A stretch of DNA of 64,000 nucleotides from sequence record PP047753; one strand, given 5' to 3'. This DNA is from Escherichia phage KEP3. Position 1 is the stretch's first letter. The number at the start of each line of letters is the position of its first letter. This document shows, in pieces, positions 14,151 through 16,010 of this stretch. The translations under genes were made by a program, and so were the position numbers. Under the pieces are notes generated by a model. It made no database searches, was not told where the DNA came from, and was given only the letters and a program-made list of their open reading frames with translations.

Positions 14151-14305
14151 GAGCAGCATAAACCAACGGGTACTCACCAGCATCACTTAAGAGTCTTTTA
14201 AAAGGGTTTTTAAGTGATGTCCGGTCGGGTGAGGTAGGGTTAAGTATTGTCCGGTACGGTCGGGTAAAGTACGGTACGGTAAGGCAAAGTAGGGTATGGG
14301 TAGTT

Positions 14306-14331
14306 AGTCTCAGCTACATTAAAATGAGACT
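14306..14331 (+). other. hairpin H1 (stem AGTCTC/GAGACT, loop AGCTACATTAAAAT)
   Basis: Inverted repeat; followed by TTTTT. Confidence 0.6.
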
Positions 14332-14448
14332 TACCTTTTTAAAAGGTCTTTAAAGAGGGTCTTTTAATGAGGTGGGGTCTGGTTTGGTATGGTAATGTGA
14401 GGTATGGGTCAGGTGGGGTGAGGTGTAGTTAGGTCTGGTATGGGTGGA

Positions 14449-14476
14449 TGGTAGTAGCCACGTTAAAAATCTACCA
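14449..14476 (+). other. hairpin H2 (stem TGGTAG/CTACCA, loop TAGCCACGTTAAAAAT)
   Basis: Inverted repeat with loop related to H1. Confidence 0.55.
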
Positions 14477-14551
14477 AGTTTCTAAAGAGTCTTCTGTTGA
14501 GGGTTCTTTACAAACAACTTAACAATAAACTAAAGTGTGGAGCTAAATGCT

Positions 14552-15139
14552 ATGAAACTGTTAAATATCAAAATCACTGGTACTCGTCCTTTCCTGAGCC
14601 ACGCTGATACGCTGTCAGACCCATTAAATCCTCTGACAAAATATCACAAGTCTCTGTCCAGTAAACGTAAAAAGACTGACGAAGACTATGCGCTCTTAGC
14701 AGAAAGCCAACTGGTAACTTCTTGTTACTACGATGAGCAACTGGGTTTTGTTATGAACGGTGAGATGATTGAGGCTTGCATTAAGTCTGGTGCGAAACTC
14801 AACAAACTTGGTAAGGTAATTGACCGAGCCATTATGCTGACAGATGTAGTCTTCCCAATGACTATCAAGAACTGTCCAGCAAACCCACAAGAACTTGCTA
14901 AGAATCCAGACTTTATCTATGCTAAGTCTGTTAAGATTGGTACAGCACGAGTTATGAGCTACCGTCCAATCTTCCGTGACTGGTCTGTAGAGTTCGGTTT
15001 GATGTTCGATGAAGAGCAAATCACCAGAGAGGAACTTCTGATGGTTCTGGAAAATGCTGGTAACCTTTGTGGTGTAGGTGATTGGCGTCCACGCTTTGGT
15101 CGTTTTTCTGTAGAAGTTATTTCAGAAGGTAACGTTTAA
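14552..15139 (+). CDS. hypothetical protein
   Basis: ORF track frame; start moved from GTG 14537 to ATG 14552 (GGAG RBS). Confidence 0.5.
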
Positions 15140-15141
15140 TT

Positions 15142-15582
15142 ATGAATACAAAAGCATTAGCAGCAAAGTTTAGTTACGGTGACACTGTATCACACTCTGA
15201 GATGGATACCTTCTTAGGTATTGTGAAGCCAACTTATCAAGGTGACATTGTTAAGTACGAAGATGAAATGAAGGCTTATGCACTTACACGCCTAAACCGA
15301 CTTGAGAAGTTTATTGAGAAGCTTCTTAAAGAAGAGAAGATTTATCTGGTTGCTTCAATGGGTGTTGGTTATCGTGTGGTTGAACCTAAGCATCAAGCAA
15401 CTATTGCAAAACGTAAAATGTCTGGTAAGATTGGTCGCGCTTTAAAGCAAGCCACTCAAGCGATTGAGAATGTGAACACTATGGCACTTAGCCATCAAGA
15501 ACGCTCACGACTGATTGAACAGCAAAACCATTTAGCTGCTATGAAAGCTAACATTAACAAGCAACGTAGAAAACCTTTCTAA
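15142..15582 (+). CDS. hypothetical protein
   Basis: ORF track. Confidence 0.5.
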   Translation: MNTKALAAKFSYGDTVSHSEMDTFLGIVKPTYQGDIVKYEDEMKAYALTRLNRLEKFIEKLLKEEKIYLVASMGVGYRVVEPKHQATIAKRKMSGKIGRALKQATQAIENVNTMALSHQERSRLIEQQNHLAAMKANINKQRRKPF

Positions 15583-15593
15583 GTTGACTAGGT

Positions 15594-15616
15594 AGCCTCT
15601 TCGGAGGCTCCTTTTT
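15594..15616 (+). terminator. rho-independent terminator (AGCCTC-TTCG-GAGGCT + T5)
   Basis: GC stem, tetraloop, T-run. Confidence 0.6.
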
Positions 15617-15717
15617 AAAAGGTCTTTAAGAGGGTCTTTTAATGAGGTTTGGTATGGTCAGGTATGGTGTGGTGTTGTAAGGTTTGGTGCGGTCAGGTTA
15701 GGCTTGGTATGGGTAGT

Positions 15718-15745
15718 TAATCGGAGCTACATAAAAATCCGATTA
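15718..15745 (+). other. hairpin H3 (stem TAATCGGA/TCCGATTA, loop GCTACATAAAAA)
   Basis: Inverted repeat; loop conserved, stem differs from H1. Confidence 0.6.
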
Positions 15746-15855
15746 CATCACTTAAGAGTCTTCTAAGAGGGTTTTTAAGTGGTGTTTGGTAGGATAGAGT
15801 AAGGTAAGTTAAGGTAGGGTGAGGTCTGGTATGGTAAGGTAATGTATGGGTAGTT

Positions 15856-15881
15856 AGTCTCAGCTACATTAAAATGAGACT
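15856..15881 (+). other. hairpin H4 (identical to H1)
   Basis: Exact repeat of 14306-14331. Confidence 0.6.
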
Positions 15882-15982
15882 TACCTTTTTAAAAGGTCTT
15901 TTAAGAGGGTCTTTTAACAAGGTATTGTATGGTGTAGTTTGGTTAGGTATGGTTAGGTGTGGTAAGGTAAGGTATGGAAGGA

Positions 15983-16010
15983 TGGCAGTAGCCTTATAAA
16001 AAATCTGCCA
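15983..16010 (+). other. hairpin H5 (stem TGGCAG/CTGCCA, loop TAGCCTTATAAAAAAT)
   Basis: Inverted repeat with related loop. Confidence 0.55.

Follow-up and report, generated by a model that had tools for sequence, protein, structure and literature searches.

Systems called VIPR, for Viral Interference Programmable Repeat, combine a minimal RAMP protein (Vipr, ~20 kDa, with an RRM core, a G-loop, and a thumb), an accessory protein (Vap), and guide RNAs known as vrRNAs, each with 9–16 YNNGG repeats and, after them, an invariant tail; in the SUSP1 clade, this tail folds into a pseudoknot (10.64898/2026.04.26.720920; 10.64898/2026.04.26.720927). In the cryo-electron microscopy (cryo-EM) structure from SUSP1, one Vipr protomer occupies each pentamer of a right-handed helical filament, with each GGY sequestered (10.64898/2026.04.26.720927). 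The two remaining bases of each repeat (NN) read double-stranded DNA on either strand, skipping one base per repeat that usually corresponds to a codon wobble position, and transcription is repressed (10.64898/2026.04.26.720920; 10.64898/2026.04.26.720927). Small-RNA sequencing, pull-down, and GFP and plaque assays showed that SUSP1 vrRNAs are ~100 nt long, bound by Vipr, and repress their target, and reprogramming of NN alone altered which DNA was silenced, with vipr and vap expression unchanged (10.64898/2026.04.26.720920; 10.64898/2026.04.26.720927). Here, we examine a 64,000-nucleotide stretch of Escherichia phage KEP3 (sequence record PP047753; referred to below as the window), which derives from a Felix O1-like myovirus with 92–95% identity to many Escherichia and Salmonella Felixounavirus records. 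Its 14.1–16.1 kb region, in which the genes vipr and vap1 are flanked by five vrRNA genes (vr1 and vr2 upstream, vr3 to vr5 downstream, all on the + strand; Table 1), is very probably a type II VIPR locus of the SUSP1 clade whose five modules are guide RNAs. The element itself entered the literature in 2026, when structures and functional assays were reported for a system sharing 98% identity with this one, and the present locus is a further instance of it.

The likeness to the SUSP1 type II VIPR (PDB 36pp) extends to the YNNGG repeats, the pseudoknot tail classes, the gene order, the satellite target, and the rule of a 1-nt skip phased on wobble positions, as well as to synteny, with a ligase on one side and a 127-aa gene on the other. 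The two loci differ in that SUSP1 (genus Suspvirus) holds 1 + 3 = four guides whereas the Felixounavirus locus described here holds 2 + 3 = five, the guide sequences differ, and the flanking genes are 58–90% identical at the DNA level. VIPR represents a newly described gapped, two-in-three code for reading DNA with RNA. To this, the present analysis adds a blind re-derivation of the link between array and vipr, obtained before the literature match, target predictions for four guides out of five (three of these sites fall on a single satellite promoter and first gene), a 5′ hairpin that is conserved, and effector-less guides in vipr-less relatives and satellites, one class of which appears to be aimed at vipr.

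Class 1 CRISPR-Cas systems, through the Cas7 filament, share with VIPR a RAMP-fold protein that polymerizes on a guide RNA at a fixed period with bases flipped regularly, a conserved structured cap at one guide end, and invading DNA as a target. However, the VIPR period is 5 nt, with three bases sequestered, two read, and one target base in three skipped, compared to 6 nt and one flipped base for Cas7, and this VIPR type is virus-borne, aimed at a satellite, and devoid of repeat-spacer array, cas1/cas2, protospacer adjacent motif, and nuclease. Vipr has been described as only a distant RAMP relative, and the VIPR authors propose that VIPR predates CRISPR (10.64898/2026.04.26.720920; 10.64898/2026.04.26.720927). 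At the KEP3 locus, neither vipr nor vap has a PADLOC match, and the modules are not repeat-spacer units. In TRAP sites, too, triplets with spacers of 2–3 nt recur along a single-stranded RNA that wraps around an oligomeric protein; unlike VIPR, however, TRAP forms a closed ring of 11 subunits, recognizes (G/U)AG, and controls the leader of its own operon, its spacers are uninformative, and no DNA is recognized. Finally, virus-borne mini-CRISPR arrays and solitary repeat units use the Cas proteins of their host. The orphan vrRNAs described below are similar in being guides without an effector of their own, which would have to borrow one in trans, with the difference that the borrowed effector would here come from a co-infecting phage, and that one orphan guide seems to point at the effector gene itself.

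vipr, vap1 and the repeat tracts

The 195-aa protein encoded between the two arrays matched the PDB 36pp entry “SUSP1 Vipr protein” over its full length (E 2e-128), with 4 substitutions in 195 residues. Nine of the ten published RNA-contact residues are present (H17, K33, E71, M72, R138, C173, D177, W178, R179), and position 175 is Val both in the window and in SUSP1, though the preprint prints Thr. The vap1 gene starts 3 nt past the vipr stop codon, and its 146-aa product is 99.3% identical to its SUSP1 neighbor (1/146 residues differs) and 100% identical to the Moogle and wV8 neighbors; no relative of it was found in Pfam, PADLOC, or PDB. Searches of Pfam, PHROGs, and PADLOC returned no function for either protein. 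Both genes are intact, and no flanking gene is as well conserved.

The best-phase GGT count per 70-nt sliding window, evaluated on both strands of the 64 kb, reached 6–11 inside five tracts and ≤5 elsewhere, and these five + strand tracts of 12–17 GGYNN pentamers are the only such signal. This bears out an earlier note on this DNA, made from the sequence alone, which had placed two and three copies of a GGT-periodic tract in two + strand intergenic regions at these positions. When phased by hand, vr1 comprises 16–17 units, vr2 15, vr3 and vr4 14 each, and vr5 12. Across 61 unique modules, position 2 is G in 98% of units and position 3 is T in 92% and C in 7%, with no purine, and the entropy of NN is 1.7–1.96 bits; some units lack the first G (AGT, TGT, GAT, GTT). 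The earlier note missed both the variable NN as an information-carrying guide and the partner protein encoded between the arrays, and its statement that the tracts match no standard element class held until 2026 and the VIPR preprints. Rfam covariance models identified only tRNAs in the window at the gathering threshold and two chance snoRNA matches (E 4–6) at a permissive one, while the element was undescribed in literature on Felixounavirus non-coding RNA and GGU repeats and in the Felix O1, wV8, and UAB_Phi87 genome papers. GenBank annotation of the region amounts at most to “repeat_region”, “terminator”, or “DR_4”, the latter being a direct repeat in wV8 that is part of the element. Small “hypothetical protein” open reading frames are annotated over the vrRNA region in NC_027360.1 (UAB_Phi87), OQ845957.1, and PP429241.1, and are most likely spurious gene calls.

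By homology to SUSP1, Vipr would polymerize along each vrRNA with one protomer per pentamer, hold each GGY, and present the two variable bases. These would then pair with double-stranded DNA with every third base skipped, and the bound filament would block transcription. Among the options in the earlier note was an RNA landing pad of the TRAP kind, to be occupied by an oligomeric RNA-binding protein; this is essentially correct in view of the SUSP1 cryo-EM structure, with its one protomer per pentamer (10.64898/2026.04.26.720927). A purely cis-regulatory version of the same idea, i.e., an RNA leader or trailer on which a TRAP- or HutP-like oligomer binds the GGU triplets and controls termination or translation of the neighboring genes, would be consistent with the 5-nt period, the 12–17 repeats on the sense strand, the position of the upstream array between a promoter and the vipr start codon, and the coating of the repeats by an oligomeric protein in SUSP1 (10.64898/2026.04.26.720927). 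However, no TRAP (PF02081) or HutP family protein lies nearby, as Pfam finds no family for the neighboring proteins, the repeated triplet here is GGY, and arrays stand alone in satellites and vipr-less phages. Furthermore, NN carries specific in-frame, wobble-skipping matches to foreign DNA, which such an array would not need, the outcome of NN reprogramming in SUSP1 already speaks against it (10.64898/2026.04.26.720920; 10.64898/2026.04.26.720927), and we consider a cis-regulatory array exceedingly unlikely.

Structured ends of the modules

Each vrRNA module ends with an H-type pseudoknot, with an S1 of 4 bp and an S2 of 5–7 bp. Across 27 distinct tails from phages and satellites, 9/11 pairs change on both sides. 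Pseudoknot cells are paired in 90.6% of cases, compared to 28–42% with partners slid, and 0/500 shuffles reach the observed covariation. On the 5′ side, a “GGTCTT box” folds (RNAalifold) into a 17-bp RNA hairpin closed by a 4-nt loop, with GUCUU opposite AGGGU and invariant G.U pairs between them. Its cells are paired in 95% of cases vs 45–68% when slid, five pairs change on both sides among three box types, and 0/500 shuffles reach its covariation score. The module as sketched in the earlier note is thus partly revised: the tracts stand, the 3′ “hairpin” is a pseudoknot, and the “paired GGTCTT cores” correspond for the most part to opposite arms of a single hairpin.

The box was found only at this locus within the 64 kb, does not appear in the text of either VIPR preprint (10.64898/2026.04.26.720920, 10.64898/2026.04.26.720927), and is missing from satellite-borne vrRNAs, which come with a promoter of their own and another leader. 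The first YNNGG unit lies inside the hairpin foot in type 2 boxes, and the same unit pairs with the target in vr2 and vr5. Since mature SUSP1 vrRNAs are ~100 nt long while a full module here spans 135–150 nt, we infer that the box hairpin is removed during maturation of the array transcript, and this conserved 5′ hairpin may define how guides get cut from the array. A role of the box as phage promoter or operator motif was dropped, with no copy elsewhere in the 64 kb and no sigma-70-like site scored inside it. The sixth box hairpin (H3) stands directly 5′ of the vipr ribosome-binding site and overlaps a weak promoter-like match at 14507–14536.

The G.U pairs of the box hairpin work only as + strand RNA, and this bears on a DNA-level reading of the tracts, in which a G-rich non-template strand would form G-quadruplexes or R-loops and act as an origin of replication, a landing pad for primase, or a site of packaging. 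The tracts are indeed strongly strand-asymmetric (G 34–50%, C 0–11%), they sit among replication genes, after the DNA ligase, and GGGTC and TGGTC may resemble T7 primase sites. Yet the structures on either side of the tracts depend on G.U pairs and show covariation as + strand RNA, the guanines are protein-bound in RNA by cryo-EM (10.64898/2026.04.26.720927), the cassette moves between genera, and the full locus is carried by about 45% of Felix O1-like phages, many relatives having a single module, unlike an essential origin. We therefore assign almost no probability to a DNA-level element. The earlier note had raised several forms of it: stacked G-quadruplexes conflict with guanines held by protein in the SUSP1 structure (10.64898/2026.04.26.720927), nothing in support of an origin, nicking, or packaging array came to light, and small-RNA sequencing of the corresponding downstream array in SUSP1 contradicts a DNA-level role deduced from the terminator-then-promoter order (10.64898/2026.04.26.720920; 10.64898/2026.04.26.720927). 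Other ideas dropped once the protein was identified were an R-loop/switch-region-like origin, T7-type primase sites, Rho-proofing of untranslated RNA, two-tetrad G-quadruplexes, type III toxin-antitoxin RNA repeats, and T4 PeSL-like cassette boundaries.

As for transcription, the sigma-70-like promoter at 14123–14150 drives the upstream guide array, and probably vipr-vap too. An inverted repeat, GGTGAGTA...TACTCACC (window 14139–14179), overlaps the −10 hexamer of this promoter with its 5′ arm and is kept in Felix O1 and Moogle; it may act as an operator or fold in the RNA made by read-through.

Predicted targets of the guides

Sequences resembling vrRNAs are carried by 135 E. coli genomes, inside an ~11-kb element with genes for a serine recombinase, baseplate and tape-measure proteins, a transposase, and an HNH endonuclease, plus small genes. 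Relatives of this satellite occur in 567/5,426 complete E. coli genomes (about 10%). We scored 12 satellite loci (236 kb) against the five guides at every position, on both strands, and with skips of 0–3 nt, using 100 shuffles of the NN order as a null. Only the 1-nt skip exceeded the null, while skips of 0, 2, and 3 never did, and the skipped bases fall on wobble positions, with coding matches in frame.

The best match of vr1 (28/32 NN; null maximum 23) lies in frame in the satellite’s 186-aa first gene, with mismatches that include CGN/AGR arginine codon switches. On the opposite strand of the same first-gene family, vr3 matches 23/28 NN (internal 23/24; null maximum 21), and all 14 skipped bases are at codon position 3. 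For vr5, 22/24 NN (null maximum 19) match the −10/start region of a promoter (TTGACA-17-TAGTAT) upstream of the satellite first gene, and vr2 matches 26/30 NN (null maximum 22) in frame in a 97-aa satellite gene, with no target gap for its extra G. This G forms a single 6-nt unit in vr2 (window 14401–14406), yet the vr2 target is continuous, suggesting tolerance of a guide bulge of 1 nt. Overall, four of the five guides point at the ~11-kb E. coli satellite, i.e., at its early promoter, its first gene (twice), and another small gene. In the sampled satellite loci, the predicted sites are L141 10078–10125 (vr1), L140 9032–9076 (vr2), L138 9300–9341 (vr3), and L136 10871–10906 (vr5).

Published SUSP1-clade guides show the same preference, with 18/20 guides that have an identifiable target directed at the satellite in E. 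coli genomes (10.64898/2026.04.26.720920; 10.64898/2026.04.26.720927). Among guides of related phages, 35/44 reach 80% of NN, 33 of those inside satellite loci (counts without per-guide nulls); the preprint match threshold is ≥80% NN (10.64898/2026.04.26.720920; 10.64898/2026.04.26.720927). No self-target was detected within the 64-kb window, where the best 1-nt-skip scores were at background (21/34, 19/28, 19/28, 17/24). We infer that the phage uses the locus to silence a satellite thought by the preprint authors to parasitize it. All sequence-level features that define type II VIPR are found at this locus, with one guide, vr4, lacking a target.

Several points nevertheless weigh against this reading. 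The best match of vr4 in the satellite loci is 20/26, vs a null maximum of 21, neither the window nor the Felix O1 genome yielded a vr4 score above the null, and the viral contig collection lacked an exact match to this guide. The best matches of the other guides cover 82–92% of NN and are not perfect, and the target sample represents 12 of 567 satellite-bearing genomes. A terminator-like hairpin precedes vr3–vr5, and no recognizable promoter scored between this hairpin after vap1 and the downstream array, which is presumably transcribed by read-through. For the box hairpin, 73/500 shuffles reach the count of covarying pairs, and its compensatory changes are few independent events because the box has essentially three sequence types; the role given to it comes from a comparison of lengths. 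Expression, ribonucleoprotein assembly, and repression would hold for this phage by transfer from SUSP1. Some of these features may also be expected from a VIPR remnant in decay, non-functional and with guides that have stopped working, including the 82–92% target matches, the units without a first G, the frame-breaking extra base of vr2, and the targetless vr4. We regard such a remnant as very unlikely, however: vipr and vap are intact and exceed the flanking genes in conservation, 9/10 contact residues are kept, and units without G at position 2 or Y at position 3 hardly ever occur. In addition, working vrRNAs frequently show internal degeneracy according to the preprint, whose own threshold is 80% (10.64898/2026.04.26.720920; 10.64898/2026.04.26.720927).

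Table 1 Features of the predicted VIPR locus (window coordinates unless a satellite locus is named)
Feature	Position	Strand	Remarks
Sigma-70-like promoter	14123..14150	+	TTGACA-16-TATACT, 11/12; conserved in Felix O1 and Moogle
5′ hairpin H1	14181..14219	+	Type 1, before vr1
vr1 repeat tract (guide)	14218..14297	+	GGYNN units
vr1 3′ tail pseudoknot	14299..14331	+	S1 GTAG/CTAC, S2 GTCTCA/TGAGAC
5′ hairpin H2	14334..14372	+	Type 2, before vr2; base takes in first YNNGG unit
vr2 repeat tract	14366..14441	+	8+7 units, one extra G at 14406
vr2 3′ tail pseudoknot	14443..14475	+	S1 GTGG/CCAC, S2 GGTAG/CTACC
5′ hairpin H3	14479..14514	+	Type 3, box copy without guide, directly upstream of vipr
vipr	14552..15139	+	195 aa, minimal RAMP; 98% identity to PDB 36pp SUSP1 Vipr
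Site in vipr matched by orphan vrRNA	15016..15048	+	Codons 155–166; 19–20/22 NN here, ≤21/22 on other alleles
vap1 accessory gene	15142..15582	+	146 aa; 99–100% identity to second gene of SUSP1, Moogle, wV8 loci
Terminator-like hairpin and T-run	15594..15616	+	3′ of vap1; T-run doubles as H4 5′ arm
5′ hairpin H4	15610..15647	+	Type 2, before vr3
vr3 repeat tract	15641..15710	+	14 units
vr3 3′ tail pseudoknot	15712..15744	+	S2 ATCGGA/TCCGAT
5′ hairpin H5	15746..15784	+	Type 1, before vr4
vr4 repeat tract	15778..15847	+	14 units
vr4 3′ tail pseudoknot	15849..15881	+	
5′ hairpin H6	15884..15922	+	Type 2, before vr5
vr5 repeat tract	15916..15975	+	12 units
vr5 3′ tail pseudoknot	15977..16009	+	S1 AAGG/CCTT, S2 GGCAG/CTGCC
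Sigma-70-like promoter of downstream 127-aa gene	16029..16057	+	TTGACA-17-TATTTT; locus end
Satellite vrRNAs	L130 19991-20095; L131 20016-20085; L132 12727-12821; L139 11349-11419		

Guides without an effector and distribution of the system

Felix O1 carries a single module and lacks the vipr and vap genes. Its lone vrRNA (L006 2985–3120) matches a site within vipr of the window (15016–15048) at 20/22 NN with all skipped bases at wobble positions, while other skips give ≤17 and 0/1,000 shuffles reach 20. The same orphan guide occurs in five further vipr-less phages (L143–L147), and its variants track vipr alleles: AA with Lys159 AAA, AG with Arg159 AGA, and, at Leu163, CT with CTG and TT with TTG, such that a guide matches the corresponding allele at up to 21/22. 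No target of the orphan guide was found in Felix O1’s own genome (17/22), and no guide from VIPR-positive loci matches vipr among the 44 related-phage guides sampled. The reverse possibility, in which guides of VIPR-positive phages would be aimed at the vipr-less Felix O1 genome, was unsupported, the best scores coming from short guides (16/18, 13/16) with no null.

Single vrRNAs with their own sigma-70 promoter and a phage-type pseudoknot tail were also identified in 4/12 satellite loci (Table 1). No Vipr or Vap homologue was detectable in the 12 loci, and satellite guides would therefore need the Vipr of a helper phage; more generally, orphan and satellite guides could act only with Vipr supplied in trans. 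Neither the orphan guide nor the vipr-less satellite guides were found in the text of the two VIPR preprints. We tentatively propose, as a possibility short of probable, that an effector-less guide loads into the Vipr of a co-infecting rival and turns it on the rival’s own vipr-vap-guide operon, i.e., an RNA anti-VIPR that would make the locus a target as well as a weapon. The vrRNA-bearing, vipr-less satellites would work by the same borrowed-effector route. Alternatively, the orphan guide may be a deletion relic, but this would leave its match to vipr and the allele tracking unexplained. If vipr-less relatives and satellites indeed retain guides without an effector, with one class aimed at vipr, VIPR guides would be exchanged and used in trans between competing viruses.

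A guide common to satellites L131 and L139 matches host intergenic DNA, at cmoB-torZ (22/24) and ymdF-rutG (20/24), against a null maximum of 18. These matches (L131 24572–24607 and L133 15167–15202) lie 1–3 kb outside the satellite ends and might represent a repeated host element.

Mooglevirus and Suspvirus show the same architecture, and the genomes of related phages contain one to five matching places each. Across three Ounavirinae genera, vipr and vap are 95–98% identical at the DNA level to those of Moogle and SUSP1 (L004, L005), compared to 58–90% for the flanking genes. vipr is present in about 117 Ounavirinae records, and a vipr-less single-module junction in 106. This pattern of the vipr-vap cassette fits recent exchange, or loss by recombination between modules.

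Beyond these phages, when viral contigs were searched for runs of six perfect GGTNN units, before the literature match, 120 stretches were recovered, 110 of which were not Felix-like. Many of the latter contigs hold long arrays of 12–27 units with no open frame, several per genome. By tblastn, 21/110 encode a 24–38% identical Vipr homologue located 10–538 nt from the nearest array, and in 20/21 the arrays are entirely on the strand of the vipr homologue. By comparison, a Vipr homologue was detected in only 15/50,697 phage records outside Ounavirinae, which indicates that the array and the protein family belong together. Unrelated viral contigs with many GGYNN arrays include a 189-kb contig with at least 8 (L041–L045), an 84-kb contig (L039), and L116, L122, and L126. 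In these contigs, each array is followed by GAGGGT and a terminator-like hairpin in place of the pseudoknot, and these are probably other VIPR types whose tails differ.

Two records labeled as Staphylococcus phage SA1 (GU169904.1) and Campylobacter phage A126 (MG065668.1) hold Felix O1-like sequence including the modules, and are probably mislabeled or mixed assemblies. Elsewhere in the window, 24 tRNA genes are clustered at 43759–49525 on the − strand, as is typical for Felix O1-like phages.

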